Program-made: the position numbers and the translations under genes
Notes under the pieces: model-generated
Databases searched by the model: none
Told to the model about the DNA's origin: nothing
The model's input: the letters and a program-made list of their open reading frames with translations, nothing else
Sequence record: OQ990039
DNA length: 64,000 nt
Reading direction: 5' to 3' (one strand)
Origin: Escherichia phage SUT_E420
Shown: positions 9,927 through 61,625 of the stretch, piece after piece
Layout: each line of letters opens with the position of its first letter
Numbering within the stretch: the stretch's first letter is position 1

Positions 9927-10565
9927 TTACTCTACTTCAATGAAGGTAGAGGCGTTAGACTCGGACAGAACAAAGTCAACATTTGTTGCAAAGTCCTGGT
10001 ATTCCTCGTCATGCTGCTTAATCAACTTCTCCAGTTCCAGCGGATCAATCAAGAATGGAGTATTCTTGAGTTCCAGCAGGTTGAGTTGCATTTTAACTTC
10101 ATCTTCGGAAGTTTTCTTATCACGGGTAGCCATGCTATCCTGCAAACGCTCATATTTAGCATCAAACTGTGCTTTCTGCGTATTAAACTTAACCGTAGCG
10201 GCATGGAACTGCTTACGCATGTTAGCCAGCAGTTGAGCTTTAAGCTCCATAGAACGCTTAGCTTCAATTGCTTCCGCAACAGTCATTTTACGAGAACCGA
10301 TCTCAACGATTGTTTCTGCATTGCTCTTAATCAGAGCAGATTTAATACGATCACGCTGAGACATCATATCCAGCAGAGACTGGAAATCAGTCTTAATACG
10401 AGTAGACAGATCAGCTACTTCGATTGCAGCGCCAACTACAACCTGGTTTTTATCCTTACCTTCACCAACAGCGATCAGAAGCTGCTGTTCAGTAGCTTTA
10501 CGGATTTTAGCTTCCAGAGATTTGATAGTTGCTAGAGCGCGAGTTTTAGAAATACGAGTAGTCAT
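9927..10565 (-). CDS. hypothetical protein (212 aa)
   Basis: ORF with ribosome-binding site; predicted helical; no motif. Confidence 0.45.
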   Translation of the reverse strand: MTTRISKTRALATIKSLEAKIRKATEQQLLIAVGEGKDKNQVVVGAAIEVADLSTRIKTDFQSLLDMMSQRDRIKSALIKSNAETIVEIGSRKMTVAEAIEAKRSMELKAQLLANMRKQFHAATVKFNTQKAQFDAKYERLQDSMATRDKKTSEDEVKMQLNLLELKNTPFLIDPLELEKLIKQHDEEYQDFATNVDFVLSESNASTFIEVE

Positions 10566-12159: not shown

Positions 12160-12675
12160 TTACTTCGCTTTACGCTTGCGAGCTGGTTTAGCAGATTTAC
12201 GAGCAGAATCACCAGTGAACTTAATGCCTACACCGTAACACAGAGCGCGAACATTATCTTTACTATACTCTACGCCAAAGATATTTGGCTTAACAGAACC
12301 AAACTGTCCACGAGTATCGCGCAATACATCTGCTGTTGGTTTACGCTTCTGGTTAACTGCCTTCTCGTAGTCTTTCATAGACATACCATTACGAGAGAAC
12401 AATTCAGCCCCAGCGTTGAAACTCAAAGATACTGGGACAGATTTGTGGCCGTAATTTTCTACATACATAACCATTTTGTAGGATTTACGGGTGGCATTTT
12501 TAGCTTTAGGCTTCTTACGAATCGGAGCCGGATTATTCAATGCTTGCGCAGCCTGAGCATCGGTAGGATGCTTACGCAGGTGACGTTCCAGACGAGCTTT
12601 GCGATTAGCCTCGGTCTGCGGGAAAGTTTTAACTGCCGGGGCTGCTTGAGTTTTTGCGTTTTTCTGCTTAGCCAT
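12160..12675 (-). CDS. basic protein, possible nucleic-acid binding (171 aa)
   Basis: Lys/Arg-rich termini (KPARKRKAK); own promoter 12714-12742. Confidence 0.45.
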   Translation of the reverse strand: MAKQKNAKTQAAPAVKTFPQTEANRKARLERHLRKHPTDAQAAQALNNPAPIRKKPKAKNATRKSYKMVMYVENYGHKSVPVSLSFNAGAELFSRNGMSMKDYEKAVNQKRKPTADVLRDTRGQFGSVKPNIFGVEYSKDNVRALCYGVGIKFTGDSARKSAKPARKRKAK

Positions 12676-12713
12676 TATTTGTTTTCCTTTTTGTTTATCA
12701 ATTTATGAAGTAT

Positions 12714-30694: not shown

Positions 30695-30711
30695 CTACAG
30701 AAAAATTTCAG

Positions 30712-30740
30712 TTGCTTAATCCTATAATTCTTGATATAAT
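30712..30740 (+). promoter_or_regulatory. sigma70-type early promoter (plus): -35 TTGCTT, 17-bp spacer, -10 TATAAT
   Basis: Consensus hexamers upstream of gene 30798. Confidence 0.65.
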
Positions 30741-30797: not shown

Positions 30798-31208
30798 ATG
30801 ACTACTCCAACTCAGTGGACTGATGAACTGTTCGAAAAAATGTCTTCCGAATACGTTGCTCGTATGGAGCAATTCCCAGAGGATGAACGTCCGGGTGTTA
30901 GCATGGAAATTGTTAGCGAAATTGCTCAGGAAAATGGTGTAACTCCGAACGGTTTTCGTATGAAGTTGACCAAAGCAGGTGTATATATCAAGAAAGCTGC
31001 TGGCTCTGCTTCTAAATCTAGTGCATCTACTGGAGAAAAAGCTTCTGGTGGTTCTCGCACTTCCAAAGCCCAAGCTCATGCCGATCTTCGTTCAGCATTC
31101 TCTGATGCTGGCCTAGCACCAGATTTTCTGGATGATGCAATTATCGACAAACTGACCGGTAAAGCGGCTGCTCATCTGGCAGAAGCAATCCGAGCTATCA
31201 CTAAGTAA
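30798..31208 (+). CDS. hypothetical protein with high-expression codon usage (136 aa)
   Basis: Strong bias to GCT/CGT/CTG/GGT codons; Ser/Ala-rich central linker. Confidence 0.5.
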   Translation: MTTPTQWTDELFEKMSSEYVARMEQFPEDERPGVSMEIVSEIAQENGVTPNGFRMKLTKAGVYIKKAAGSASKSSASTGEKASGGSRTSKAQAHADLRSAFSDAGLAPDFLDDAIIDKLTGKAAAHLAEAIRAITK

Positions 31209-31244
31209 TTTTTAGATAAATCCACCAACAAAAGGAACACAGTT

Positions 31245-31541
31245 ATGACCAAAGCTGAAATTATCGCACAATGTGAAAAATTTGGTGAGTTTTATCTTCA
31301 TTACGAGAAACTTCGTCAGAAAGGAACCACGTACCTTCAGGGTACGATGGAATTTGATCCAGCCCAAGATAAATATCTGGCTGAGCGTATTAAACGTGAA
31401 CGTATTCGTAAAGCGAAAGATGATGAGATCCTTGTCTTCTCTCGTACTAATGATAGCTTCCGTTTTATTCCTGTCGAGAAAGTCCGTCGTGTGACTAGCC
31501 TCCAATCAGAGTTAGATCGTGCTTCTCCAGTAGGCCGATAA
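31245..31541 (+). CDS. hypothetical protein (98 aa)
   Basis: ORF with ribosome-binding site AAAGGAA; followed by a terminator. Confidence 0.45.
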   Translation: MTKAEIIAQCEKFGEFYLHYEKLRQKGTTYLQGTMEFDPAQDKYLAERIKRERIRKAKDDEILVFSRTNDSFRFIPVEKVRRVTSLQSELDRASPVGR

Positions 31542-31550
31542 GAAACCAAT

Positions 31551-31575
31551 TAGCCCCTATATGGGGCTTTTTGTG
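31551..31575 (+). terminator. rho-independent terminator
   Basis: Stem AGCCCC/GGGGCT with loop TATAT followed by TTTTTG. Confidence 0.55.
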
Positions 31576-31591
31576 TATTTGGGATATGTAA

Positions 31592-31900
31592 ATGAGCGAA
31601 CAGGTAAATCAAAACTATGAAGGACACGTTGATGACCAGTCCATCATACTTTGGGAGAAGGAGGGGGAACAAGTAAGATTAACAGTATCTGAATTTCGTG
31701 GGAATCTATACATGGGTATTCGTTACTGGCTTCTTGATATTAATGATGAATGGTTTCCAACGAAATCTGGCTTCTCTTTTCCTTACACCCTAGAAACAAC
31801 ATCACAGCTTTTCTATGCGTTTACACAGATTCTTAGCGAATCTGAGGTTTTACATGAAGTACAGAAACGAGCTGAAGAACTCAAAGCCAAGAATGCCTAG
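31592..31900 (+). CDS. PC4-like ssDNA-binding protein (102 aa)
   Basis: VRLTVSEFRGNLYMGIRYWLLDINDEWFPTKSGFSF resembles the PC4/Sub1 C-terminal ssDNA-binding fold. Confidence 0.45.
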   Translation: MSEQVNQNYEGHVDDQSIILWEKEGEQVRLTVSEFRGNLYMGIRYWLLDINDEWFPTKSGFSFPYTLETTSQLFYAFTQILSESEVLHEVQKRAEELKAKNA

Positions 31901-31917
31901 TTCTTGGCTTTTTCTTT
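31884..31917 (+). terminator. rho-independent terminator (10-bp stem)
   Basis: AAGCCAAGAA/TTCTTGGCTT stem with 7-nt loop, followed by TTTCTTT; overlaps the stop codon of the PC4-like gene. Confidence 0.6.
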
Positions 31918-31927
31918 ATAAATGTAT

Positions 31928-31956
31928 TTGCTTTCAACTCAGTTTTGTTATATAAT
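31928..31956 (+). promoter_or_regulatory. sigma70-type early promoter (plus): -35 TTGCTT, 17-bp spacer, -10 TATAAT
   Basis: Followed by the family leader ATTTATATAAATTAATGAGAGGG. Confidence 0.7.
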
Positions 31957-31986
31957 ATTTATATAAATTAATGAGAGGGTTGCAAA

Positions 31987-32259
31987 GTGAAAAAGATAAG
32001 TATAAGTACACTTAAACCTTTCCCGTACATCGGACAGCCTCTTATACTTATGTGGGAGGGGAAGATTAATGGAGAAAAGTATACTAAAACTAGAAGTGGG
32101 TATAAGCTGATTTCACTTCATTACGAAAAAGAAGTATTAGTAGCTGAAATATACTCTCCGTTGTCAGATAGGCTAGTAAAAACTACATATTTGCATCTTT
32201 GCAAAAATTATACATGGCACGGATCCACTAGACAACCCACATACTATGAGGCAGAATAA
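31987..32259 (+). CDS. hypothetical protein (90 aa, GTG start)
   Basis: GTG start with ribosome-binding site GAGAGGG; directly upstream of the ligase N-terminal ORF. Confidence 0.4.
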   Translation: MKKISISTLKPFPYIGQPLILMWEGKINGEKYTKTRSGYKLISLHYEKEVLVAEIYSPLSDRLVKTTYLHLCKNYTWHGSTRQPTYYEAE

Positions 32260-33231
32260 ATGACCAATGTAAAAGACTTTATTAAACGTTGCCAAGAAGC
32301 ATATTATCAAGGTATGTCTTTAATCTCTGATGAAGAGTATGATTGCCTGGTAAAACGCTTTCCGTTAGAAGAAGAGATCGGACCTAAGGGCGATATTCCA
32401 CATCTGTATCGTATGTATTCTTTACAGAAAGTTTATTATAATCGTGGAGATAAACCTCCGTTTAACCCGTTAGGTCAAGTAGAAACTGATAAGTTAGATG
32501 GTTGTGCAATTTCTCTGTTATATATTAATGGCGAATTTGTTCAAGCACTAACTCGTGGTAATGGTATTCTAGGGAATGATGTCACAAGCAACGTAAGATT
32601 GCTGAATATCCCTAAAAAGATTTCCCAAAAAGTACCTACTCAAATCACTGGTGAAGTTCTAATTACAAAAGAAGTAGAAAATAAACGTAACTTTGCCTCT
32701 GGTGCTATTAACCTCAAAGATAGTGATGATTTTGTACAACGTATCGGAGAAGGTGGTTTAATCTTCGTTGCATATGGTATCCAGTGTTCTGCTGAATCTG
32801 TAGGTATTACAGAAGCATATTTAAAAGATATGCTTTGGCTGGAGAATGAGAACTTCTTAACAGTTGTTAATGTGCGTTCCTTCTTTAAATGGATTCCGAC
32901 GGATGGTAAAGTTGTTCGTATTAATGACAACAACAAATTCTTCCGTGAAGGCTGGACTAATAAATTCCCTCGTGGAGCATTCGCTATTAAAGAGGATGAA
33001 GAAGGCGAGGTTACAACTCTTACTAAAGTTGAATGGCAGGTAGGGGCTTCTGGTAAAGTAACTCCAGTTGGTTATTTCGAACCGGTAATTATTGATGATG
33101 CTACAATTGTTAAAGCGACTCTTAATAACGTTGATTATATTAACTCTCTTGATCTAGAGATCGGTTGCCAGATTCGAGTGATTCGTGCTGGTGGTGTAAT
33201 CCCGTGCATAGTAGAGCGAGTATACGAGTAA
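32260..33231 (+). CDS. NAD-dependent DNA ligase, N-terminal part (adenylation domain)
   Basis: 323 aa; nucleotidyltransferase motif I KLDG (VETDKLDGCAISLLY) and LigA-like Ia region. Confidence 0.7.
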   Translation: MTNVKDFIKRCQEAYYQGMSLISDEEYDCLVKRFPLEEEIGPKGDIPHLYRMYSLQKVYYNRGDKPPFNPLGQVETDKLDGCAISLLYINGEFVQALTRGNGILGNDVTSNVRLLNIPKKISQKVPTQITGEVLITKEVENKRNFASGAINLKDSDDFVQRIGEGGLIFVAYGIQCSAESVGITEAYLKDMLWLENENFLTVVNVRSFFKWIPTDGKVVRINDNNKFFREGWTNKFPRGAFAIKEDEEGEVTTLTKVEWQVGASGKVTPVGYFEPVIIDDATIVKATLNNVDYINSLDLEIGCQIRVIRAGGVIPCIVERVYE

Positions 33232-33282
33232 TACATAACCCTTTGCTACCCATCTACCATATCGGAATTATAAAGTGGTTAT

Positions 33283-33310
33283 TGACATTTTCGCCGCTTA
33301 GGTATATACT
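33283..33310 (+). promoter_or_regulatory. sigma70-type promoter (plus): -35 TTGACA, 16-bp spacer, -10 TATACT
   Basis: In the spacer between the ligase halves; shares TTGACATTTTCGC with the promoter at 4125. Confidence 0.5.
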
Positions 33311-33374
33311 AGTATCATTCAGTTGAGGGATAGAAAGTTATGGCGAGGGTAAGCAAAGTTAGTTAAAATTGTAG

Positions 33375-33403
33375 TTGCTAAATGCTTAAATACTTGCTAT
33401 AAT
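33375..33403 (+). promoter_or_regulatory. sigma70-type early promoter (plus): -35 TTGCTA, 17-bp spacer, -10 TATAAT
   Basis: Directly upstream of the ligase C-terminal ORF with the family leader. Confidence 0.7.
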
Positions 33404-33433
33404 ATTTATATAAATTGATAAGGAAGAAATTTG

Positions 33434-34204
33434 ATGAAAATCGAAATTCCAACACAATGTCCCTCTTGTGGTTCTAAGCTAGATCTTGTCAACGGACAAT
33501 TATTTTGTCGGAATAAGTCCAACTGTCCAGCGCAATCAAGTAAGTTAATTGAGAACTTCTGTACAAAAATGAAGTTAAAGGGTTTTGGTCCAAAAACTAT
33601 TGAGAAGCTGGAGCTGACGAAGATTTCAGAACTATTTTACCTAACCGAAGAAGATTTGGTTAGAGCCGTGGGTAGCAAGGTTGCCGCTAAGTTAATTAGC
33701 GAATTAAATACTAAAGTTCGCGGAGACATTGACTTTGGTTCAGTTCTCGGTTCTTTAGGAATCCCTCTAATTGGAGAGGTTGCAGCAAAGAAATTATCCC
33801 AAAATTGCACTAGCTTCCACGATGTGAAGGCTGACGGCAAGGCTGGAGAAAATTATAAAGCCTGGCTAAATTCCCCACAAGGCAAGGATGTTATCGAATT
33901 ACCGTGGAAATTCTCAACTGGTGCTAAAGCTAAAACCGTCGTTACTGATGATTTAGTTGCCCAGCCAAATGGAATCGCGGTATGTATTACCGGATCTTTG
34001 CAAGACTTTGCAAATCGAACGGATGCAACAAACTATTTAGAAGGTCTAGGATATACGGTTAAGAAATCTGTTACCAAAGACGTCAAATACCTAATCTGTG
34101 AGGATGAATCGAAGCGTTCTTCCTCATCTTATAAGAAAGCCGAAACGAATGGGATAGAAATCCTGTCGATTAAAGAACTATTGGAGAAAAATAATAATGT
34201 CTAA
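33434..34204 (+). CDS. NAD-dependent DNA ligase, C-terminal part (Zn finger, HhH, BRCT)
   Basis: Cys4 Zn finger (CPSCGSKLD...CRNKSNC), helix-hairpin-helix region, BRCT-like C-terminus (IAVCITGSL...YLICED). Confidence 0.7.
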   Translation: MKIEIPTQCPSCGSKLDLVNGQLFCRNKSNCPAQSSKLIENFCTKMKLKGFGPKTIEKLELTKISELFYLTEEDLVRAVGSKVAAKLISELNTKVRGDIDFGSVLGSLGIPLIGEVAAKKLSQNCTSFHDVKADGKAGENYKAWLNSPQGKDVIELPWKFSTGAKAKTVVTDDLVAQPNGIAVCITGSLQDFANRTDATNYLEGLGYTVKKSVTKDVKYLICEDESKRSSSSYKKAETNGIEILSIKELLEKNNNV

Positions 34205-34964
34205 ACTGAACTGGAACGTAGAAGGTGTAACCGAGTCTCTGAAAGCAAAAGCCACTGCTCTGGGTGTTTCTGTAATCTCTCAAGAACAAGTAGCCGCTAT
34301 CGCCGCTGAACTGGCTGCTGAAACTGGCAAAGATGTTACCGCTCGCTCTGTTGGCTCTAAACTGCGTAAAGAAGGTTTTGAAGTACAGAAAGCTAACGAA
34401 GTACAGAAATCCCCGTGGACTCCTGAGCAGGAAGCTGAACTGGTTGATTTCCTGAACGCTCATGCTGGTCAGTATACCTATGCTGAAATCGCTGCTGCTG
34501 TAGCTGGTGGTCAGTTCGGTGCTAAGCAGGTACAGGGTAAGATTCTGAGCCTGGAAATGACCGCTTCTGTTAAACCAACTGAAAAAGCTGCTGCTGTTCG
34601 TTCCTTTACTCCGGATGAAGAAACTGATTTTGTTAATCAGGTTGTTGCTGGTGCTACTATTGAAGCTATCGCTGCTCACTTCGGTCGCAATATTAAGCAG
34701 ATCCGTGGTAAAGCTCTGAGTCTGCTTCGTGAAGGTCGTATCGCTGCTATGCCGGTACAGGAAACCTCAAGTGCTAAAACTCGTGAAGATCTGTTAGAAG
34801 GTCTGGATCTGGTTAACATGACTGTTGCTGAGATCGCTGAGAAAACTGGTAAATCTGAGCGCGGTGTTAAATCTATGCTGTCTCGTCGTGGTCTGGTTGC
34901 TAAGGACTATGATGGTGCCGCTAAGCGTGCTAAACTGGATGCAAAAGCTGCGGCTGCTGAATAA
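34197..34964 (+). CDS. abundant-type protein with 3-4 tandem HTH-like repeats, putative DNA-binding protein (255 aa)
   Basis: Internal repeats (...ARSVGSKLRKEGF / ...AKQVQGKILSL / ...IKQIRGKALSLLREG / ...ERGVKSMLSRRGL); strong high-expression codon bias. Confidence 0.5.
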   Translation: MSKLNWNVEGVTESLKAKATALGVSVISQEQVAAIAAELAAETGKDVTARSVGSKLRKEGFEVQKANEVQKSPWTPEQEAELVDFLNAHAGQYTYAEIAAAVAGGQFGAKQVQGKILSLEMTASVKPTEKAAAVRSFTPDEETDFVNQVVAGATIEAIAAHFGRNIKQIRGKALSLLREGRIAAMPVQETSSAKTREDLLEGLDLVNMTVAEIAEKTGKSERGVKSMLSRRGLVAKDYDGAAKRAKLDAKAAAAE

Positions 34965-34981
34965 TCTGGTAAATTAAACCT

Positions 34982-35018
34982 AAGGGGAGGGGGCTATGCT
35001 CCTTCCCCTTTTTGCATT
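34982..35018 (+). terminator. rho-independent terminator
   Basis: Stem AAGGGGA/TCCCCTT followed by TTTGCATTT, immediately after gene 34197-34964. Confidence 0.5.
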
Positions 35019-35046
35019 TAGAAGGCACGAAAGCGTGCAAAGGAGA

Positions 35047-36519
35047 ATGACCTTGTTTAACGTGCAAGCTGTAGTGTTGAAGATGCTTCTAGCTTCCGAA
35101 CAGAAGCAAATAGCATTGGAAACATTCTCAAAACTGCATAAAGATCATTTTAATGACGCTTTCTCCTCAATTTACCAAGCCGTCCAGAATTATTATAAAA
35201 AATATAACACAATGCCGTCCATTGACGCACTTATGCTTGAAGCTAATAGGAACGCCCGCCTTTCTCAAGCCCTAGTCGTCTTAGCTAACACTCAAATTCC
35301 AGAAGTGAGCATGGAACAGGCACTTGAAGTCCTAGAGGCCGAGTATACACAGGATTTATTCCTGAAGCTTCTAGAAACAGACGTGCTTCAAGATTTAACA
35401 ATGCTGGATCAGGGAGAAATTCTCAACCGAGTTGCCTCCCTTCACTTAAAATTAGAAGAGAAAGTAACGAATACTGGAAAAGTATTCAACGCAGATAACA
35501 TGCGTATTTTCCAGAGAGAAGAAGATACCAAACTGAACTTAATCGCTCTTGGTATTTGTAATGAGTTCGATGCTCAAATTGGTTTAGCTCGCACAGAAAC
35601 GTTACTGCTTGGTGGTTGGCGTGGTACTGGTAAATCCATTATCTGTTCAAACATACAGGTTCAGCAATATTTGAATGGAGATATTGCTCCATACTTCTCA
35701 ATTGAGATGAAAGAACATGAAGTATTTAGACGTAATCTAGCCATGTTAGCCGGGGTATCAGCACTAGCAATGCGTAATAATACTCTAGAAGGTGCAGCTC
35801 TATTGAGATTAGCCAGAACTAGAGCTAGAATGTTCAACGGGGGTGAAGAGCTTTTCGATAACTTCGTTAAACAGTATACAATGGCTAAGATGAGTGATTT
35901 CTACGATATGGAGAGTAAGCTAATAGAGGGGTATGAACTACATACTCCTATGATTATCGTTTATGACCCTGAACTGTCCATTACAACAGTTGACGTAGAA
36001 TTAAATAAATTAGTTGCTAGATATGGTGATAAAGTTACAGTAGCTTTACTGGACTATATTAACCAAACCCGACTTCCAGATTCTAAAACCATTGATATGT
36101 ATGACTGGAAGGAACAGATGGTTGTTAGCTCGTCTTTCAAATCCATCTGCCAGAAACATAACGTGGCTGGCGTAGCTCCCTACCAGATCGATCAAGATGG
36201 TAGAACACGTATGTCAAAGGGGATTCTTGATTCCGCAGACATGGCTGCTAATCTTAATGCTGCTAAAGCTGATAATGGTCAAGGTGCTATTATGTTTGAC
36301 TTTGTTAAGACTCGTTCTTCTGATAGCGTGAAGTTTATGCCTAAAATGAATTGGGAAACTCTGCGAATGGATAATACTACCAACCTAGCAATGGAAGATA
36401 TATCTCAAATGGAAGCTGAGTTCGTTATCCCTATTGAGAAGGATAAGCCGGCTCAACCTAAACGTGCTAAGAAAGACAAAACTGAAAATTCAACAGGTGA
36501 ACAGGCCAGCGATATATGA
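35047..36519 (+). CDS. DnaB-like replicative helicase (about 490 aa)
   Basis: Walker A GGWRGTGKS, DnaB-type SIEM motif, Walker B-like MIIVYD; start set at ATG 35047 (ribosome-binding site AAAGGAGA); the track start 34996 lies inside the terminator hairpin. Confidence 0.6.
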   Translation: MTLFNVQAVVLKMLLASEQKQIALETFSKLHKDHFNDAFSSIYQAVQNYYKKYNTMPSIDALMLEANRNARLSQALVVLANTQIPEVSMEQALEVLEAEYTQDLFLKLLETDVLQDLTMLDQGEILNRVASLHLKLEEKVTNTGKVFNADNMRIFQREEDTKLNLIALGICNEFDAQIGLARTETLLLGGWRGTGKSIICSNIQVQQYLNGDIAPYFSIEMKEHEVFRRNLAMLAGVSALAMRNNTLEGAALLRLARTRARMFNGGEELFDNFVKQYTMAKMSDFYDMESKLIEGYELHTPMIIVYDPELSITTVDVELNKLVARYGDKVTVALLDYINQTRLPDSKTIDMYDWKEQMVVSSSFKSICQKHNVAGVAPYQIDQDGRTRMSKGILDSADMAANLNAAKADNGQGAIMFDFVKTRSSDSVKFMPKMNWETLRMDNTTNLAMEDISQMEAEFVIPIEKDKPAQPKRAKKDKTENSTGEQASDI

Positions 36520-37406
36520 GTAGAATAACAGAACTACTTGATCTGAAAGGCATTGAATATAAAGACACAGGTGGGGACATCCTCATCTGTTGTCTCAATC
36601 CAGATCATGACGATAAACACCCAAGTTTGCGTATTGATCCTGAAACAGGTATTATGCACTGCTTGAGTTGTGGCTTCGGTAAAGGTATACCGAGCATTTA
36701 CCATTATTTTAATGAGACTCAGTACCGACAGTCTCCAAGACTATCGCAGGTACGTAAAAAGATTTCAGAGATTAGGAATGGATCTACAAATCTTGCAATT
36801 CCTGAATCTGCTTACCTTTTCGAAGGTGATTTCCGAGGTATAAGTTCTAAGACCTTGAAGAAATACTTTGCTTTCCAACACCAAGCAGACTGGGAAGGCA
36901 GAATTGTATTCCCAATCACAGATGCTGTTGGACGCAATATCCTATTTTTGGGTCGTTCTATAAACAGTTCTGCCCCTCCTAAATACTTAGTAAAACCAAA
37001 ACAAGTTTCACCACCGATTTTCCCTGTACGATATAATACTCCAGTTCTTATTCTAGTTGAAGGTATCTTTGATATGCTGAACCTAGAGGATAATGGTATA
37101 GACTATGCTTCTTGCTGCTTTGGTACACATCAGTTTACTTCAGATAACATTGCAGATAAGTTTAGCCCTTATATTATTGCTGGTGTAAAAGTTGTTGTTA
37201 TCTTACTAGATAATGATGCTTCTGGTAATAAAGCTGCACAAGCGTTGGCCAAGCTAATTCGTACAAAAACGCGTTTAACACCTGTAGTGGCTAACTTTCT
37301 TCTACCCGAAGGTAAAGACCCTGGTGACTTAAATAAAGAAGAAATTGATATGTTAGCAAAACGTATTGAAATTTTAGTTGCTGAATCGCTTAAAGATTTG
37401 GTATAA
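36516..37406 (+). CDS. DNA primase (zinc-binding plus Toprim)
   Basis: Zn-binding CCLNPDHDDKHPSL...CLSCGFG followed by Toprim DxD (VVILLDNDASGNKAAQ). Confidence 0.7.
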   Translation: MSRITELLDLKGIEYKDTGGDILICCLNPDHDDKHPSLRIDPETGIMHCLSCGFGKGIPSIYHYFNETQYRQSPRLSQVRKKISEIRNGSTNLAIPESAYLFEGDFRGISSKTLKKYFAFQHQADWEGRIVFPITDAVGRNILFLGRSINSSAPPKYLVKPKQVSPPIFPVRYNTPVLILVEGIFDMLNLEDNGIDYASCCFGTHQFTSDNIADKFSPYIIAGVKVVVILLDNDASGNKAAQALAKLIRTKTRLTPVVANFLLPEGKDPGDLNKEEIDMLAKRIEILVAESLKDLV

Positions 37407-37468
37407 TATATTGGTAAGTTAGAGAAGAAACACTGAAGTTATACTTACTTACCAAGAGGAGATTAAAT

Positions 37469-39661
37469 TTGAAAATCGCAGTAGTTGATAAAGCTCTAAA
37501 TAACACTCGTTACGATAAACATTTCCAGCTATACGGCGAGGAAGTTGATGTATTTCATATGTGTAACGAGAAGTTATCTGGTCGTTTGCTTAAAAAGCAC
37601 ATTACTATTGGAACACCAGAAAATCCATTTGATCCGAATGATTACGATTTTGTTATACTAGTAGGTGCTGAACCTTTCCTGTATTTCGCAGGTAAGAAAG
37701 GCATTGGTGACTATACTGGTAAACGTGTAGAATATAATGGATATGCTAACTGGATTGCAAGTATCAGCCCAGCCCAGTTACACTTTAAGCCTGAAATGAA
37801 ACCAGTTTTCGATGCAACAGTAGAGAATATCCACGATATTATCAATGGTCGTGAAAAGATTGCAAAAGCTGGTGATTACCGTCCTATTACTGACCCTGAT
37901 GAGGCGGAAGAATATATCAAGATGGTGTATAATATGGTTATCGGACCTGTCGCATTCGACTCCGAAACCTCAGCACTATACTGTCGAGATGGTTATCTGC
38001 TTGGTGTTTCTATATCTCACCAAGAGTATCAGGGTGTATATATCGATTCTGATTGTCTCACAGAGGTTGCAGTATATTATCTCCAGAAAATTCTGGATAG
38101 TGAAAACCACACTATTGTTTTTCACAACTTGAAGTTTGATATGCACTTTTATAAGTACCATCTGGGACTTACTTTTGATAAAGCACATAAAGAACGCAGG
38201 CTCCATGATACAATGTTGCAGCATTATGTTCTAGATGAGCGTCGTGGTACTCATGGCTTGAAATCTCTAGCAATGAAGTATACCGATATGGGTGACTATG
38301 ACTTTGAACTAGATAAGTTCAAAGATGATTACTGCAAAGCACATAAAATCAAGAAAGAAGATTTCACCTATGATTTAATTCCGTTTGATATTATGTGGCC
38401 TTACGCTGCAAAAGATACCGATGCCACCATACGCTTGCACAACTTCTTCTTACCAAAAATTGAGAAGAATGAAAAACTTTGCAGTCTGTATTATGATGTT
38501 CTAATGCCTGGTTGTGTATTTCTCCAGCGTGTTGAGGATCGTGGTGTACCNNNNNNNNNNNNNNNNNNNNNNNNNNNNNNNNNNNNNNNNNNNNNNNNNN
38601 NNNNNNNNNNNNNNNNNNNNNNNNNNNNNNNNNNNNNNNNNNNNNNNNNNGGGTATCGTGTAATCGCATGGGACTTAACAACTGCGGAAGTTTATTATGC
38701 TGCTGTTCTATCTGGGGATAGAAATATGCAACAGGTATTTATCAATATGAGAAATGAACCTGATAAATACCCGGACTTCCACTCTAACATCGCACACATG
38801 GTATTTAAACTCCAATGCGAGCCTCGTGATGTTAAAAAGTTATTCCCAGCTCTGCGTCAGGCTGCTAAGGCAATTACCTTCGGTATTTTGTATGGTTCTG
38901 GCCCAGCTAAAGTAGCTCATTCTGTTAACGAAGCTCTTCTGGAACAGGCTGCTAAGACAGGAGAACCGTTTGTTGAATGTACTGTTGCGGATGCGAAGGA
39001 CTATATCGAAACTTACTTCGGTCAGTTCCCACAGCTTAAGCGTTGGATTGATAAGTGCCACGATCAGATTAAGAATCATGGATTTATCTATAGTCACTTT
39101 GGTCGTAAGCGTCGTCTGCACAATATCCACTCCGAAGACCGTGGTGTTCAGGGTGAAGAAATTCGTTCTGGATTTAACGCAATCATTCAGTCTGCTTCCT
39201 CTGATAGCCTCCTTTTAGGTGCTGTAGATGCAGATAATGAGATCATTTCTCTTGGCCTAGAACAAGAGATGAAGATTGTTATGCTGGTTCATGACTCCGT
39301 GGTTGCTATTGTTCGTGAGGATTTGATCGACCAATACAATGAAATCCTGATTCGTAATATTCAGAAAGACCGTGGTATCAGTATTCCTGGCTGTCCGATT
39401 GGTATTGATTCAGATTCTGAAGCTGGAGGTTCTCGTGACTATTCTTGTGGTAAGATGAAGAAACAGCACCCATCAATCGCTTGTATTGATGATGATGAAT
39501 ATACTCGTTATGTCAAGAGTGTATTACTTGATGCAGAGTTCGAGTATAAGAAACTAGCTGCAATGGATAAAGAGCATCCAGATCATAGCAAATACAAGGA
39601 TGATAAGTTTATTGCTGTATGTAAAGATTTGGATAACGTAAGAAGGATTCTCGGTGCTTGA
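37469..39661 (+). CDS. DNA polymerase, family A (internal assembly gap)
   Basis: TTG start; 3'-5' exonuclease motifs (FDSETSAL, YAAKDTD) before the gap; motif A-like WDLTTAEVYYAA, motif B RQAAKAITFGILYGSG and motif C LVHDS after it; palm/thumb region missing at 38551-38650. Confidence 0.85.
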   Translation: MKIAVVDKALNNTRYDKHFQLYGEEVDVFHMCNEKLSGRLLKKHITIGTPENPFDPNDYDFVILVGAEPFLYFAGKKGIGDYTGKRVEYNGYANWIASISPAQLHFKPEMKPVFDATVENIHDIINGREKIAKAGDYRPITDPDEAEEYIKMVYNMVIGPVAFDSETSALYCRDGYLLGVSISHQEYQGVYIDSDCLTEVAVYYLQKILDSENHTIVFHNLKFDMHFYKYHLGLTFDKAHKERRLHDTMLQHYVLDERRGTHGLKSLAMKYTDMGDYDFELDKFKDDYCKAHKIKKEDFTYDLIPFDIMWPYAAKDTDATIRLHNFFLPKIEKNEKLCSLYYDVLMPGCVFLQRVEDRGVXXXXXXXXXXXXXXXXXXXXXXXXXXXXXXXXXXGYRVIAWDLTTAEVYYAAVLSGDRNMQQVFINMRNEPDKYPDFHSNIAHMVFKLQCEPRDVKKLFPALRQAAKAITFGILYGSGPAKVAHSVNEALLEQAAKTGEPFVECTVADAKDYIETYFGQFPQLKRWIDKCHDQIKNHGFIYSHFGRKRRLHNIHSEDRGVQGEEIRSGFNAIIQSASSDSLLLGAVDADNEIISLGLEQEMKIVMLVHDSVVAIVREDLIDQYNEILIRNIQKDRGISIPGCPIGIDSDSEAGGSRDYSCGKMKKQHPSIACIDDDEYTRYVKSVLLDAEFEYKKLAAMDKEHPDHSKYKDDKFIAVCKDLDNVRRILGA
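38551..38650. other. assembly gap (100 N) without flanking duplication, inside the DNA polymerase gene
   Basis: Flanks differ; motif spacing implies roughly 150 missing residues. Confidence 0.8.
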
Positions 39662-40151
39662 TTTCAAATTGCCCGTCTATACGTTACGGGCGTTTGTATC
39701 AATTGAGCAAGAAGGTGATTATTCCGTAATTACAACAAGATATAATAAATATGTGCTAGATAACAGGAAGTTGCCTGGCACGTTTTCTCAACGTAGGCTC
39801 ATTCTATTTGAGAAACGGAAAGAATTACCGTACAAGCTCTATCCTATTAGAGGTAGAATATCAATGTTGTCCCAATTAGTTGGGTCAAAGCGTAGCCAAT
39901 TTATAGATTCTGATGGAAATCTTATTAATTGGAAGAAAACTACGTTCTATGATGTTGTTACCTCTAAAGTTTTGAATTCAGCTAGAATTTATAACGGAAA
40001 ATACCAATGCTATGTAGCTAAAGTTCCATACCCATTTGTATTATCCTATGTTCCAGCTTATATAAGCTATATTCTGGTAAATAATAGCCCTGTTATTTAT
40101 CAAGTCCATCAAGAGGAGCCTGAAATTCCTAGACTTAGAATAAAATTATGA
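39654..40151 (+). CDS. hypothetical protein (165 aa, GTG start)
   Basis: AT-rich ORF between polymerase and helicase genes. Confidence 0.4.
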   Translation: MLDFKLPVYTLRAFVSIEQEGDYSVITTRYNKYVLDNRKLPGTFSQRRLILFEKRKELPYKLYPIRGRISMLSQLVGSKRSQFIDSDGNLINWKKTTFYDVVTSKVLNSARIYNGKYQCYVAKVPYPFVLSYVPAYISYILVNNSPVIYQVHQEEPEIPRLRIKL

Positions 40152-41500
40152 AGGTTGTTATATCTAATAAAGCCTATTTCAAGCCCGATGATGAACTTTG
40201 GGATTATTGTAGTAAGCAAACCACTTATCACATAGAGACAATGACTAGTAAATACCCTATTATGTATAAGAATAGTGGTGTTGTTGCTAAAGAGATTAAG
40301 TGGATTCCTATCACGCGTCTGGATTTATTAGATGCTAAAGGAGTAAAATACGAATTAGTAGATAAACGTACATTAGCTCCGGTAGATATACCAAAACCTA
40401 AGTTCAAGCTGCGTGAAGAAGACCAGCTCCCAATATATGAAGAGTGCGATGATACCTGTATTATTAATGGTAAGCCTGGGTTTGGTAAAACTATCCTAGC
40501 CCTTGCACTTGCGTATAAATTTGGCCAGAAAACTTTGGTAATCTGTACGAATACATCCATTCGTGAAATGTGGGCAGCAGAAGTTCGTAAATGGTTTGGG
40601 TTTGAACCGGGCATTATAGGTTCTGGGAAATACAATATTGATCCACCAATTGTAGTCAGTAATATTCAAACAGTGAATAAACATGCGAATAATCTTTCTA
40701 AAGTATTCGGTACTGTTATAGTTGATGAAGTTCACCATTGTGTGGCTACAACTTTCACCAACTTCCTAGAAATATCATGTGCTCGCTATAAGATTGGACT
40801 ATCTGGAACATTAAAACGGAAAGATGGTCTACAAGTTATGTTCAAAGATTTCTTTGGATATAAGATCTTTAGCCCACCGGTTAATAATACTGTTGCACCT
40901 ACAATCCATAGGTACTCCGTGCCTGTTGAGTTATCAGGAAACCAAAACGTACCATGGGCATTACGTGCTAATGATGTGTATAACCATCCTGAATATCGAG
41001 AGACTATTATAAACTTAGCACACTTATACGTGAATATGGGGCATAAAGTACTCATTGTAAGTGACAGAACAGAGTTAATCCAAACAGTACTAGAAGCTCT
41101 CGCACAGCGTGGTGTTACAACATATGAAATTATAGGGGCAACCCACTTGGATGACCGATTAAAAATTCAGGAAAATATAGCAAAAGGTGGGCCTTGTGTA
41201 CTTGCAGCAGCTCAAAGTATCTTCTCTGAAGGTATTTCCCTTAATGAGCTATCTTGTTTAATAATGGGGAGTCTCATTAATAATGAATCTCTCATTGAAC
41301 AGCTTGCAGGACGTGTTCAACGTATTGTCGATGGTAAACTCGACCCTATTGTTGTAGATCTAATTATGAAAGGTGGCACTGGACTAAGACAGGCTTCTGG
41401 ACGTATGGCAGTATATCGTAACAACGGGTGGAAAACTATTACCATGACTCCTGAGAAAGCAGTTCAATTAGCTAAAATTGCATTTGGCAACAGCTCATAA
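40148..41500 (+). CDS. SF2 DEAH-box helicase (T5 D10-like)
   Basis: 450 aa; Walker A GKPGFGKT, DEAH box VIVDEVHH, C-terminal helicase motifs. Confidence 0.7.
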   Translation: MKVVISNKAYFKPDDELWDYCSKQTTYHIETMTSKYPIMYKNSGVVAKEIKWIPITRLDLLDAKGVKYELVDKRTLAPVDIPKPKFKLREEDQLPIYEECDDTCIINGKPGFGKTILALALAYKFGQKTLVICTNTSIREMWAAEVRKWFGFEPGIIGSGKYNIDPPIVVSNIQTVNKHANNLSKVFGTVIVDEVHHCVATTFTNFLEISCARYKIGLSGTLKRKDGLQVMFKDFFGYKIFSPPVNNTVAPTIHRYSVPVELSGNQNVPWALRANDVYNHPEYRETIINLAHLYVNMGHKVLIVSDRTELIQTVLEALAQRGVTTYEIIGATHLDDRLKIQENIAKGGPCVLAAAQSIFSEGISLNELSCLIMGSLINNESLIEQLAGRVQRIVDGKLDPIVVDLIMKGGTGLRQASGRMAVYRNNGWKTITMTPEKAVQLAKIAFGNSS

Positions 41501-41512
41501 ATGATGTATAAT
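41484..41512 (+). promoter_or_regulatory. sigma70-type early promoter (plus): -35 TTGGCA, 17-bp spacer, -10 TATAAT
   Basis: Overlaps the end of the helicase gene; followed by the family leader. Confidence 0.6.
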
Positions 41513-41583
41513 ATATACATAAATTTGAGAGAGAAAGTTTCGGATTGATAAGAAAGTCCGAAGCAGAAAAATAAAAATTTTAG

Positions 41584-41613
41584 TTGCTAAATTCTCTCGA
41601 AATCTAGTATAAT
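41584..41613 (+). promoter_or_regulatory. sigma70-type early promoter (plus): -35 TTGCTA, 18-bp spacer, -10 TATAAT
   Basis: Second tandem promoter about 100 bp downstream of 41484-41512. Confidence 0.6.
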
Positions 41614-41720
41614 ATATACATAAATTCGAGGAGAAAACAAAAATTAAATTCTTCGATTATGAAAAGCTATACTTACTAGCTAGAGGAAATTCCGACCTAA
41701 TTATCAAGCTATTCAAAAGA

Positions 41721-42005
41721 ATGCTTACAGAGCCTGATGCTCATCAATTATTGGTCGGTTCCTCATTCATTTTGAATGAATCAACAATAGTTGATAATCC
41801 AAATAAATTGTCTAATAGACAACTGGCAGAATATCTAGGAATTTTAAGTCTACGAAATTATGCCGAATACAAGTTTACAAACGATCCTAGTTTGGACATA
41901 CAATATGTTCCAGTATGGATACCACGTTTAGTAATCGACACTAACCCACTAATCGCAATTAACAAATCGAAATTAATCTTTAAAGAGGAAATAAAATATG
42001 GCTAA
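41721..42005 (+). CDS. hypothetical protein (94 aa)
   Basis: ORF in track; no motif. Confidence 0.35.
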   Translation: MLTEPDAHQLLVGSSFILNESTIVDNPNKLSNRQLAEYLGILSLRNYAEYKFTNDPSLDIQYVPVWIPRLVIDTNPLIAINKSKLIFKEEIKYG

Positions 42006-42771
42006 GTCTTGGGGCGAAACTACTGGCGGTTCTAACGATAAAATCGAATTCCTGAAGTTCAACAACGGTATCACTCGTGTTCGTATCGTTTCTGGTGTTC
42101 TTCCACGTTATGTCTATTGGCTGACTAATAAAGAGGGTAACGTAGCTCCTTTCGAATGTCTCCGTTTTAACCGTGACAAAGAGAGCTTTGTTCGTGGTAA
42201 AGCTGATCCGGTTCATGAGATGGGCTTCTTCGAGAAAGAGCTGGATAAAGATGGTAATCGTGTTCCGCTGAAACCGAAGAAAAACTATATCGCTTTTGTT
42301 ATCGACCGTTCTGATAACAAACTGAAAGTAATGGAAGTCAAGGCTACTATTCTGAAAGGCATCCAGTCTATCATGAAGCAGCTGAGCCTGGCAACTCCGT
42401 TTGATATTGATATTTCTATCGAGAAAAAAGGTAAAGGTTTCGATACTGAGTATGATGTACAGCAGATTGCTGCTATGCAGTTCCAGATTAAGCTGCAAGA
42501 TCCTAACAGTGCAGAATCTAAGCAATATGCTGCAGATGTAGATCTGATCGGTGAAGCTATGTGTGATGAAGATGGCGACATCATTAAGTTCGAAAAAGTT
42601 CCTTCTCTGGAACAAACCTATCCGGTTCCTACCTATGAAGAGCAGAAAGAAGCAATTCTAGCCTTCATGGAAGGTCGTGAGAATAAAGATGATGATGCCA
42701 AATCTGGTAATAGCAATGCAGGCTCCCAGAAAGGTATTGACACAGAAGCTGCAAGCGATCTGGATGACTAA
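41998..42771 (+). CDS. highly expressed early protein (T5 D11-position), function unknown (257 aa)
   Basis: Ribosome-binding site AAAGAGGAAA, strong high-expression codon bias, acidic C-terminal tail (EAASDLDD); followed by a terminator. Confidence 0.5.
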   Translation: MAKSWGETTGGSNDKIEFLKFNNGITRVRIVSGVLPRYVYWLTNKEGNVAPFECLRFNRDKESFVRGKADPVHEMGFFEKELDKDGNRVPLKPKKNYIAFVIDRSDNKLKVMEVKATILKGIQSIMKQLSLATPFDIDISIEKKGKGFDTEYDVQQIAAMQFQIKLQDPNSAESKQYAADVDLIGEAMCDEDGDIIKFEKVPSLEQTYPVPTYEEQKEAILAFMEGRENKDDDAKSGNSNAGSQKGIDTEAASDLDD

Positions 42772-42796: not shown

Positions 42797-42896
42797 NNNN
42801 NNNNNNNNNNNNNNNNNNNNNNNNNNNNNNNNNNNNNNNNNNNNNNNNNNNNNNNNNNNNNNNNNNNNNNNNNNNNNNNNNNNNNNNNNNNNNNNN
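42797..42896. other. assembly gap (100 N) flanked by identical 77-bp copies
   Basis: 42720-42796 is identical to 42897-42973. Confidence 0.85.
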
Positions 42897-42956
42897 AGGC
42901 TCCCAGAAAGGTATTGACACAGAAGCTGCAAGCGATCTGGATGACTAATAAATAGA

Positions 42957-42979
42957 GGGGCTTCGGCCCCTTTCTTTTT
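42957..42979 (+). terminator. rho-independent terminator (GGGGC-TTCG-GCCCC plus T-run)
   Basis: GC stem with TTCG tetraloop followed by TTTCTTTTT; the first copy at 42780-42796 is truncated by the gap. Confidence 0.7.
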
Positions 42980-42984
42980 AACCA

Positions 42985-44139
42985 ATGAGAATATTATTTA
43001 GTGCTGATCATCATATCAAACTAGGACAAGATAAAGTTCCAAAGGAATGGCAGAAGCGTCGCTTCCTGATGCTAGGAGAACGGTTAAATGATATATTCCA
43101 TAATCATAACTGTGATCTTCATATTGCTGGTGGTGATATACTTGATGTTGCCGACCCGTCGTCAGAAGAAATAGAACTGCTTGAACAGTTCATGTCAAGA
43201 CTTGACCATCCAGGCAAAATCTTTACTGGAAATCATGAAATGTTAACGAAAACCATTTCATGTCTATATCATTATGCAGGAGTTATTAATAAAGTAACGA
43301 GTGGTAAGTGGGAAGTAATTACCAAACCATATCGTTCCCCTGAATTTGATATTGTTCCATATGACGAAATCCATAAATCTAAGTGGAAACCATCTGAATC
43401 AAAACTATGTTTCACGCATGTTCGTGGTGAAATCCCTCCACATGTAAAACCAGANNNNNNNNNNNNNNNNNNNNNNNNNNNNNNNNNNNNNNNNNNNNNN
43501 NNNNNNNNNNNNNNNNNNNNNNNNNNNNNNNNNNNNNNNNNNNNNNNNNNNNNNTCTAAGTGGAAACCATCTGAATCAAAACTATGTTTCACGCATGTTC
43601 GTGGTGAAATCCCTCCACATGTAAAACCAGAAATTGATCTAACTAAGTACAACTGTTATGATACTGTAATTGCTGGCGATTTACATTCTTATACTAATAG
43701 CCAGACTATCGGATCTACTAGACTCCTCTACCCAGGGTCTCCATTAACTACATCGTTCCATAGAGAACGCACAAAAGGTACAAATGGTTGCTTTATCGTT
43801 GATACCGACACATTAAAAGTAGAATGGATTGAACTCGGTGATTTACCACAACTGATTCGTAAAACAATCGGAGCTGGTGAAGAGATGGAACCTAGTGATT
43901 ATGATCGTGTAGTCTATGAAGTTACTGGTGACGTTGTTCAATTAAAGTCTATCAAAGACTCTGATTTATTAGATAAGAAGATTAACCATCGAGTTACTAA
44001 AGACGCTAAGTTAAATCTTGTTGATCTTGATATGTTAGGCGAACTTGAACTTTACTTCCGTGAAGTTGAGAAGCTATCTCAAGGCGACATTGATAGAATC
44101 TTGGCTAGAGCTGCGAAATATGTCAAAGATTACAATTAA
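42985..44139 (+). CDS. SbcD/Mre11-like nuclease (T5 D12-like)
   Basis: Calcineurin-like phosphoesterase motifs (ILFSADHH, GGDILD, FTGNHE); ORF contains the duplication artefact at 43455-43554. Confidence 0.75.
   Translation: MRILFSADHHIKLGQDKVPKEWQKRRFLMLGERLNDIFHNHNCDLHIAGGDILDVADPSSEEIELLEQFMSRLDHPGKIFTGNHEMLTKTISCLYHYAGVINKVTSGKWEVITKPYRSPEFDIVPYDEIHKSKWKPSESKLCFTHVRGEIPPHVKPXXXXXXXXXXXXXXXXXXXXXXXXXXXXXXXXXXSKWKPSESKLCFTHVRGEIPPHVKPEIDLTKYNCYDTVIAGDLHSYTNSQTIGSTRLLYPGSPLTTSFHRERTKGTNGCFIVDTDTLKVEWIELGDLPQLIRKTIGAGEEMEPSDYDRVVYEVTGDVVQLKSIKDSDLLDKKINHRVTKDAKLNLVDLDMLGELELYFREVEKLSQGDIDRILARAAKYVKDYN
43455..43554. other. assembly gap (100 N) flanked by identical 77-bp copies
   Basis: 43378-43454 is identical to 43555-43631. 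Confidence 0.85.
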
Positions 44140-46492: not shown

Positions 46493-47152
46493 ATGGCTGT
46501 AGATAGTAGAGAGAAAGGTAAACGTGGTGAATATCAGGTAAGAGATATTCTACGTGAGCGTACAGGTCTTGAGTGGGAACGTGTTCCTGGCTCTGGTGCT
46601 TTTGGCCAGAGCCACGGACTGAAAGGTGACATCTACCTTCCACCACAAAGCGGACACATTAGTAAATACTGCTTCGAAGTTAAGTGGTANNNNNNNNNNN
46701 NNNNNNNNNNNNNNNNNNNNNNNNNNNNNNNNNNNNNNNNNNNNNNNNNNNNNNNNNNNNNNNNNNNNNNNNNNNNNNNNNNNNNNNNNCACGGACTGAA
46801 AGGTGACATCTACCTTCCACCACAAAGCGGACACATTAGTAAATACTGCTTCGAAGTTAAGTGGTATAAAGATGATAATATATCAAGTAATTTATTTAAT
46901 GTTGGTGAATCCACTCTAGAGAAGTGGTGGCAGCAGTGCTCACGTGAAGGTGAGCAGATGAACTCCAAACCTGCATTAATATTCAAAAAAGACAGAGGAC
47001 AGTGGTTAATAGCTTTGGATAGCTCAGACCCAATGGTTGACAACTTAATGAGTCGTACCCATATGGTGTTAAATAAGAAAGACATGGAAATCGTAATTGG
47101 TTTATTTGAACCGTGGCTACATCATGCATCTGTTGAGGACTTAATTAAATAA
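46493..47152 (+). CDS. PD-(D/E)xK-type nuclease-like protein (T5 D14-like)
   Basis: GDIY...FEVKW resembles a PD-(D/E)xK core; contains one duplication artefact (true length about 160 aa). Confidence 0.45.
   Translation: MAVDSREKGKRGEYQVRDILRERTGLEWERVPGSGAFGQSHGLKGDIYLPPQSGHISKYCFEVKWXXXXXXXXXXXXXXXXXXXXXXXXXXXXXXXXXXHGLKGDIYLPPQSGHISKYCFEVKWYKDDNISSNLFNVGESTLEKWWQQCSREGEQMNSKPALIFKKDRGQWLIALDSSDPMVDNLMSRTHMVLNKKDMEIVIGLFEPWLHHASVEDLIK
46690..46789. other. assembly gap (100 N) flanked by identical 77-bp copies
   Basis: 46613-46689 is identical to 46790-46866. Confidence 0.85.
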
Positions 47153-51698: not shown

Positions 51699-52120
51699 TA
51701 TTTAGTTACCCCATCACTGATAAATACTTTACCCTCCATTATACGAAAGGAGCTAATTGCAGATCCTATAACATCTCTAGTCATAATTATATCATAGTAT
51801 CCTGCGAATCGCTGACGAGGGTTATATTTATCTCTATCTTTAGATGCTCTAGCCCCTATATTTTCCACAGATTCTACTGGCAAACTTATAGCTACAGCCC
51901 CTTGAGCAGCATCAATAATATTAGTAGTAAAGGATGCTAATATCTCCGCATTCTCATCTAGGCTATTTTTTATAGTACCCCTTAGAGAATACCCGGTTAA
52001 GTTAACGGGGGTATTTGTAGGTGGATAAGTACTATCATCAACATCTAAGAACTGCATCATTAAACCATATGGTACTTTCTCATCTATTACTAAATCTATA
52101 ACTCTATTTTCAGTACTCAT
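51698..52120 (-). CDS. tail collar protein (T5 p132-like)
   Basis: 140 aa, between the pb4-like gene and the tail fibre; size and position match T5 p132 from memory. Confidence 0.45.
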
Positions 52121-52123
52121 TAT

Positions 52124-57818: not shown

Positions 57819-57894
57819 AGTTAATTTCTCCTCTTTAATAACAATATTATAATAGTATTAGAAAATTTTATCAAGAAATTTTTATTTTTCCATA

Positions 57895-57920
57895 AAGAAA
57901 AGGAGGACTCAAAGTCCTCC
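57895..57920 (-). terminator. rho-independent terminator/attenuator (minus) between tape measure and Dit genes
   Basis: Stem GGAGGACT/AGTCCTCC; on the minus strand followed by TTTTCTTTATGG. Confidence 0.45.
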
Positions 57921-57927
57921 TCCAGTT

Positions 57928-61608: not shown

Positions 61609-61625
61609 GTTTTATTTTTCCCAAT

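Follow-up and report, generated by a model that had tools for sequence, protein, structure and literature searches.

The early genes D5, D11 and D3 of Escherichia phage SUT_E420 (sequence record OQ990039) are written largely in the codons favoured by the highly expressed genes of the host, in sharp contrast with their neighbours. This is best explained by translational selection of the ordinary kind, acting on known and presumably abundant proteins that coat DNA and are needed in stoichiometric amounts, a reading to which a probability of about 0.85 is given. The phenomenon itself is ordinary and already known, and the roles of D5 and D11 have been published. The stretch of 64,000 nucleotides that was analysed (the window) belongs to a T5-type phage of the genus Tequintavirus: SUT_E1520, T5_ev212 and EC148 are about 100% identical to it over 98-99% of the stretches tested, and its counterpart in T5_ev212 spans about 33-97 kb. 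Read from the left, the window has tRNA genes and an early region (minus strand), then a replication module (plus strand) and finally the beginning of the tail genes. An earlier note, made from the letters of the DNA, had pointed to four loci as heavy users of host-optimal codons and as a mark of putatively abundant early proteins. These loci, with the annotation of T5_ev212, are:

4216-5847, plus strand: three open reading frames (ORFs; 4216-5205, 5227-5643 and 5653-5847) amid a minus-strand region, the first two labelled just 'Phage protein'
30798-31208, plus strand: D3
34197-34964, plus strand: 'D5 protein/DNA-binding protein'
41998-42771, plus strand: D11 protein

The codon adaptation index (CAI) was computed with weights from 31 E. 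coli K-12 genes (ribosomal-protein genes, tufA, fusA and rpoA; 5,222 codons) for all 154 annotated coding sequences of T5_ev212, and then for the same genes at the window coordinates. Each gene was compared with resampled sequences in which synonymous codons were drawn from the phage-wide usage while the protein was kept fixed; a stricter version also fixed the class of each codon at its third position (GC3). Over the 154 genes, the median CAI is 0.36 (mean 0.378, standard deviation 0.11), and these weights give 0.29-0.46 for ordinary E. coli genes and 0.55-0.84 for the reference genes themselves.

On this scale D5 ranks first of 154 (CAI 0.775-0.779; z 12.9, or 8.4 with GC3 controlled), D11 third (0.679; z 9.9 and 7.1) and D3 fifth (0.625; z 5.2 and 3.8), a significant difference for each of the three. 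The second and fourth ranks are taken by the major capsid protein (0.743; z 18.1 and 11.2) and by the gene of a 212-aa protein at 9927-10565 on the minus strand (0.645; z 8.5 and 5.4). The ORF at 4216-5205 holds rank 15 (0.543; z 6.2 and 3.3), and no codon bias was found by CAI in 5227-5643 (0.343, z -1.0) or 5653-5847 (0.312). The claim of host-optimal codons at four loci is thus borne out strongly for D5, D11 and D3 and moderately for 4216-5205, whereas at 4216-5847 it fails for the other two of the three ORFs. The list was also incomplete, since three early genes of the minus strand that are equally or more biased had been overlooked, namely 9927-10565, the DUF7022 gene at 12160-12675 (CAI 0.588) and the SPFH/Band-7 gene at 6140-7087 (0.573; z 7.1, or 5.8 with GC3 controlled).

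The effective number of codons (Nc), a measure that needs no reference set, gives the same picture, with 31.3 for D5, 32.6 for the capsid gene and 33.6 for D11. In the pool formed by D5, D11, D3 and the capsid gene, the relative synonymous codon usage of CTG is 4.93, compared with 4.78 for the E. coli reference and 1.03 for the phage as a whole. CGT (5.0), GGT (3.2), GCT (2.8), ACT (3.1) and TCT (3.3) are likewise preferred in this pool, GTT is favoured too, and TTA, CTA, AGA, GGA, ACA, ATA and AGG have nearly gone from it. The bias is gene-specific rather than regional: the upstream neighbours that share a transcript with the adapted genes rank among the least adapted of all, with a CAI of 0.32 for ligB (before D5) and 0.23 for orf94 (before D11). 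This sharp contrast within a transcript suggests that codon choice tracks the required protein yield and not the transcript level.

Such a bias could arise as a by-product of amino-acid composition or of a local mutation or strand bias, and D5 is indeed rich in Ala, Lys and Glu while D3 carries a low-complexity linker. However, the z-scores already hold the amino-acid sequence and the GC3 class constant, next-door genes of one strand can be more than two-fold apart in CAI, and both strands carry biased genes (plus strand: D5 and D11; minus strand: the capsid, 212-aa and DUF7022 genes). This by-product is thus extremely improbable, and a pure artefact of amino-acid composition was rejected by the conditional resampling.

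Another possibility is that the islands are foreign DNA, acquired recently from the host or from another phage together with the codon usage of the donor. In overall GC, D5 (0.47) and D3 (0.45) exceed the average of the phage, the highest value of the 1-kb GC profile (0.451) falls at 34-35 kb, and the gene at 4216-5205 is an accessory gene present in only part of the genus. Nevertheless, the raised total GC stems from the Ala/Gly-rich amino-acid content and not from silent sites. The GC3 of the biased genes is 0.30-0.39 (D5 0.32), the level of the remaining phage genes and far below that of E. coli genes (0.43-0.55), so that at silent sites they do not stand out as GC islands; the statement that most early genes are AT-rich holds, with the addition that the biased genes themselves are not GC-rich at third positions. 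Moreover, their usage resembles only the highly expressed class of the host and not ordinary host genes.

The distribution of these genes points in the same direction, D3, D5 and D11 being core and syntenic across the genera of Demerecviridae. Homologues of D5 occur throughout this family, with a protein identity of 99-100% across Tequintavirus, and at least 97.5% in the E. coli and Salmonella phages listed; it falls to 77% in the phages of Klebsiella, 55% in those of Proteus and about 50% in those of Vibrio. The bias is kept at 50-77% protein identity. The D3, D5 and D11 orthologues of the Klebsiella Sugarlandvirus vB_Kpl_K32PH164C1 reach a CAI of 0.70, 0.78 and 0.77, respectively, with an Nc of 31-33, versus 0.23-0.54 and 44-58 for their 22 neighbours. 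In Proteus phage PM135, D5 (0.53) and D11 (0.45) are the top two genes of the module, as scored with E. coli weights that are imperfect for Proteus. The bias kept in such diverged orthologues rules out a recent acquisition and argues for sustained selection. Horizontal transfer of a GC island was therefore rejected, given the background GC3 and the conservation across genera, and foreign origin in any form is considered very unlikely. In the same PM135 genome, an unannotated ORF at about 8030-8470 (MAFEWTDEAF...) is a clear D3 homologue, located between D2 and the next gene.

Translational selection for protein amount leads to the question of expression. Transcript levels, in transcripts per million (TPM), were taken from the RNA-seq data of the Tequintavirus Bas33 (HildyBeyeler, MZ501074) at 20 min post infection (PMC13250531, Dataset S1), as the mean of the untreated replicates for 123 phage genes mapped via the Bas33 annotation. 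The D5 orthologue is the top transcript (TPM 19,755), twice the next gene, and is followed by D3 (9,298, rank 2), ligB (9,149, rank 3), the 212-aa protein orthologue bas33_0075 (7,711, rank 4), the DUF7022 orthologue (7,168, rank 6), D11 (4,459, rank 8) and the major capsid protein (4,072, rank 10), with DNA polymerase, primase and helicases at about 1,000-1,600 (PMC13250531). All six of the most codon-adapted Bas33 genes are within the top ten transcripts. The use of codon bias as a marker of abundant early proteins is therefore supported at the RNA level in this relative, D5, D3 and D11 holding ranks 1, 2 and 8 of 123.

Concerning the tRNAs, T5 has more than 20 tRNA genes, and eight host-rare codons are read by a phage tRNA (TTA, CTA, AGA, GGA, ACA, TCA, CCA and CAA). 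These eight codons make up 31% of their amino-acid families genome-wide and 45% in ligB, in contrast to 5-7% in the D5, D11, capsid and 212-aa genes and 5% in the E. coli reference; among genes of at least 100 codons, CAI and the phage-tRNA codon fraction are strongly opposed (Spearman rho -0.80). There are therefore two codon regimes in this phage: a few genes are tuned to the major tRNAs of the host, and the bulk follows AT pressure, backed by the phage tRNAs.

It could be argued from the same data that the bias was selected not for amount but for timing or tRNA independence, that is, for translation before the phage tRNAs accumulate or under defences that attack tRNAs. The biased genes avoid exactly the codons of the phage tRNAs, T5 tRNAs have been reported to counter tRNA-targeting defences (PMC13015707), and the tRNA region is deletable, as in the Juelich variant of Bas33. 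Against this, phage-tRNA codons abound in early neighbours that share both promoter and time of transcription with the biased genes, as in ligB, and the transcript levels point to amount. Furthermore, the major capsid protein is late and has this bias too, so timing cannot be the general cause. Selection for timing or independence is, on balance, improbable.

The signals around the genes are also in agreement with selection for amount. In the window, TATAAT-N3-12-ATAAATT occurs at 14 sites versus 0.16 expected, and by its sequence it appears to define a family of T5-type early promoters, with a -10 hexamer and a conserved downstream box. Each of the eight window genes that reach a CAI of 0.57 or more stands first or second after a T5-type promoter, although the converse fails. 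For the three main genes, the putative signals are:

33375..33416, plus strand: early promoter heading ligB-D5, TTGCTA-17-TG (extended)-TATAAT (33398), then ATAAATT
33282-33310, plus strand: second promoter-like site before ligB-D5, TTGACA-17-TATACT
34982..35010, plus strand: strong intrinsic-terminator-like hairpin 18 nt past the D5 stop, 13 pairs of which 8 are G-C, then a T-run
41484..41626, plus strand: two tandem T5-type early promoters (41484-41512 and 41584-41613) heading orf94-D11, both with TATAATATATACATAAATT, TATAAT copies at 41507 and 41608
42954..42973, plus strand: terminator-like hairpin shortly 3' of D11, its distance obscured by the 100-N gap 42797-42896 with 77-bp duplicated flanks
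30711..30739, plus strand: T5-type promoter variant directly upstream of D3, TTGCTT-17-TATAAT (30734), A-rich upstream

The D3 variant was read by eye from the sequence and was passed over by the consensus scan, its -35 hexamer matching at 3/6 positions. Terminator-like sites number 18 in the region versus 8.0 expected. The T5-type promoters found by the motif are:

1114-1132, 2200-2218, 3411-3430, 3967-3985, 7981-7999, 8654-8672, 10829-10847 and 12700-12719, minus strand
23489, 29709, 31951, 33398, 41507 and 41608, plus strand

This motif presumably resembles the classic PN25 class of promoters, which we take as a lead only. A 13-mer, TTGACATTTTCGC, common to the promoter-like sites at 4125 and 33282 is no more frequent than expected by chance when up to two mismatches are allowed.

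With regard to the gene junctions, ligB overlaps the start of D5 by 8 nt (34197-34204) and orf94 overlaps the start of D11 (41998-42005) in the same ATGNCTAA arrangement, the overlap sequences being ATGTCTAA and ATGGCTAA, respectively. An 8-nt overlap with the stop of a poorly adapted upstream gene suggests translational coupling for D5 and D11. In the Klebsiella relative, a 2-nt gap takes the place of the overlap. On the other side of D5, the ATG at 34996 that opens the 507-aa ORF of a DnaB-like helicase is part of the loop of the terminator hairpin behind D5; ATG 35047 or TTG 35053, after AAGGAG, would be preferable as the start, and the Bas33 annotation has the shorter form.

Taken together, translational selection could operate as follows. 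D5 would coat double-stranded DNA (dsDNA) and D11 single-stranded DNA (ssDNA), with D3 as a small relative of one D5 module. Since these proteins would act by coating DNA, the amounts needed would be proportional to the DNA made by the phage, which has a burst of hundreds (PMC3632103). A strong sigma-70 promoter of the T5-type early class, doubled in tandem for D11, would serve each gene in the first or second cistron, and intrinsic terminators immediately 3' of D5 and D11 would give short and abundant transcripts. These would be translated with codons matched to the major tRNAs of the host, avoiding the AT-rich phage-tRNA codons common in the rest of the genome. From this we infer a high copy number of the proteins and a contribution of codon choice, beyond the mRNA level, to their amount.

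Several points weigh against this interpretation. The correlation between CAI and TPM in Bas33 is modest (Spearman rho 0.36, p = 5e-5, n = 123), and genes of low CAI on shared transcripts (ligB, orf94 and bas33_0045) are also high in TPM, so that the mRNA level alone does not predict the bias. The support from expression comes from RNA levels in one relative, at one time point and in a strain without the tRNA region; all the CAI weights derive from a single reference set of 31 genes; and the promoters and terminators are motif matches and not mapped transcript ends. Silent-site divergence (Ks) does not help either. Between T5 and Bas33, Ks is 0.089 for D5 and 0.082 for D11, about three times lower than the median of 0.268, but a genome-wide correlation of CAI with Ks between these two phages was not found (rho -0.04), and the low values of D5 and D11 are therefore anecdotal and carry little weight.

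A raised host-referenced CAI in high-copy phage proteins is established (early studies of T7 and lambda; Lucks et al. 2008, PMC2266997). In the work of 2008, as in T5, the regions of elevated CAI match high-copy proteins and the signal survives controls for amino acids and GC3. It differs in stressing head and tail proteins versus non-structural ones, whereas the strongest bias of T5 is that of the early non-structural D5, above the major capsid protein. The tail genes (48930-63422, minus strand), unlike those emphasised by Lucks et al. 2008, are among the least codon-adapted genes of T5, with z -6.1 for the pb3 hub, -3.7 for Dit and -3.8 for pb1. The receptor-binding pb5, whose gene lies outside the window, has z -4.8, and the tail genes thus contrast with the capsid protein. 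That the most codon-adapted protein of T5 is an early one that binds DNA, and not the capsid protein, is a mild twist on the known pattern. In a literature search, no paper with a per-gene codon analysis of T5 was found; the DRT4 paper (PMC12783706) was set aside because it concerns a different T5 protein, ORF55.

The properties of the three proteins fit such a role. The product of 34197-34964 had been read as carrying 3-4 tandem helix-turn-helix (HTH)-like repeats and as a candidate for the abundant dsDNA-binding early protein, which agrees with its annotation as D5 and with the rank of its orthologue in the RNA-seq. An AlphaFold2 model of D5 (255 aa), built from 37 homologues, has a mean local confidence (pLDDT) of 92.5 and a global score (pTM) of 0.49. 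It places three-helix bundles at residues 11-58, 76-118 and 139-178 and, after an extended linker, a helix pair plus a C-terminal helix at 210-254. Together with the Pfam and profile comparisons, it depicts D5 as four tandem HTH-type modules. In Pfam, Sigma70_r4_2 matches residues 204-230 (E 9.6e-7; 28.8 bits with a cut-off of 25.7), and HTH_23 (151-184), Myb (71-100) and HTH_33 (32-68) match below threshold, one for each remaining module. Comparison of the modules by hhalign gave a probability of 96% (E 4.5e-9) for R2-R3, just 3% for R2-R4 and 36-46% for the other pairs. D5 was assigned to PHROG 323.

The best whole-chain structural matches of the D5 model are weak, namely the SelB C-terminus, the Tc3 and mariner transposases, LuxR-type proteins and sigma region 4. 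The tandem winged-helix array of SelB (PDB 1LVA) and the bipartite HTH of Tc3 and mariner are, like D5, strings of small helical nucleic-acid-binding modules. With E 0.016 or worse and a TM-score of about 0.2, this is an architectural resemblance and no evidence of common descent. The published T5 gene D5 product is identical with the product of 34197-34964, contains HTH and binds DNA. According to McCorquodale 1979, as cited in PMC12630848, it binds DNA and has an effect on replication and late expression; the binding of this HTH protein to retron msdDNA has also been described (PMC13405049). The predicted four-module architecture and the apparent kinship of D3 to one module are small additions to this knowledge.

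The locus 41998-42771 had been proposed as a stoichiometric replication factor at the D11 position; it is D11, which the literature treats as the ssDNA-binding protein (SSB) of T5, working with the purified protein. The best and sole strong structural matches of the D11 model are gp32 of T4 and of RB69, on which its OB-fold core can be superposed. D11 thus appears from the model to be a gp32-like ssDNA-binding protein, the binding itself being taken from the literature. No Pfam match to D11 was obtained at E <=0.1, the gp32 family PF08804 included, and PF08804 matches two of the 37 members of the D11 family (distant ones; best E 5.9e-6). D11 is therefore a structural and remote relative of gp32 and not a member of the Pfam family. 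Residues 229-257 are disordered and acidic and end in DTEAASDLDD, with E250 and L255 invariant. The acidic disordered C-terminal tail, the location in a replication/recombination module and the signals of high expression are shared with T4 gp32. It differs from T4 gp32 in that its own sequence is not matched by the Pfam gp32 family and in having a single invariant Cys (C54).

D3 belongs to PHROG 1725 ('DNA binding protein'). Its residues 39-77 align with module 4 of D5 (hhalign 75%, E 2.6e-5), and BLASTP matched it to D5 residues 210-236 (E 0.011). Judging from these alignments, D3 would be a small DNA-binding protein with one HTH module of the D5 type. Both D3 and D5 are among the DNA-binding genes mutated in retron escapers (preprint PMC13405049). 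Adjoining D3, a gene at 31592-31900 on the plus strand encodes a PC4-like (PF02229) small ssDNA-binding protein or transcription cofactor, with a CAI of 0.33 and its own terminator-like hairpin at 31883-31911.

Besides D5, D11 and D3, the codon-adapted early genes of the window are:

9927..10565, minus strand: 212-aa protein of the early region, PHROG 1491, second gene behind the promoter at 10847
12160..12675, minus strand: very basic 171-aa DUF7022 protein with Lys/Arg-rich ends (Pfam DUF7022, E 1.8e-76), first gene behind the promoter at 12719
6140..7087, minus strand: SPFH/Band-7 protein (Pfam Band_7, E 2e-17)
4216..5205, plus strand: accessory gene, PHROG 8119 of unknown function, with its own promoter-like TTGACA-17-TAAAGT at 4125 and the Shine-Dalgarno sequence TAGGAGGTG

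The 212-aa protein is filed as 'tail fiber protein' in PHROG 1491 and in GenBank records, a name that is probably wrong. The DUF7022 protein is a candidate abundant nucleic-acid-binding protein. The gene at 4216-5205 was found in 222 phage records, mostly of Tequintavirus and all 'hypothetical', and has no orthologue in Bas33; its product has an N-terminus that is acidic and rich in His, followed by a hydrophobic stretch rich in Gly, GLFGAILIGALLTGGFGGFGGFGG, and by a region rich in Gln, Asn, Thr and Ala with a CCC motif. Comparison of D5, D11, the 212-aa protein and the DUF7022 protein with PDB sequences gave nothing significant (as single sequences and, for D5 and D11, also as profiles), and no meaningful match to the biased proteins came from NCBIfam or PADLOC.

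It should be noted that the record contains 12 runs of exactly 100 N within the window:

5911-6010, 27525-27624, 29064-29163, 38551-38650, 42797-42896 and 43455-43554
44192-44291, 44824-44923, 45694-45793, 46690-46789, 47262-47361 and 54082-54181

In ten of the 12, the 77 bp that precede the gap recur after it as a direct duplication, which indicates scaffold joins of overlapping contigs. These joins alter the length of several ORFs and leave the four noted loci all untouched. The ORFs of SbcD, D14, D15 and pb4 are lengthened by 177 nt and that of SbcC by 531 nt (three joins), and those of DNA polymerase and the large helicase lose 375 nt.

Regarding the meaning of these data, codon choice alone, read from the raw sequence, picked out the most heavily expressed early genes, the roles guessed for D5 and D11 were right, and the finding is mainly a sanity check of such a reading. 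As a cheap way to rank the 'hypothetical' genes of T5-like phages by likely abundance, the per-gene CAI has a modest practical value. The avoidance of phage-tRNA codons by the adapted genes bears on the debate over the role of phage tRNAs. The most useful by-product is a short list of uncharacterised and apparently very abundant early proteins: by codon bias and Bas33 transcripts, the 212-aa protein, the DUF7022 protein, D3 and perhaps the product of 4216-5205 possibly fall in the abundance class of D5 and the SSB. More tentatively, and with a low likelihood, T5 could make, in stoichiometric amounts, a few early proteins that coat DNA or build compartments, among which DUF7022 would be a histone-like partner of D5 and D3. 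If this were true, such proteins would order or protect the phage DNA during its replication, once the host chromosome has been destroyed, a layer of T5 biology that has not been described.

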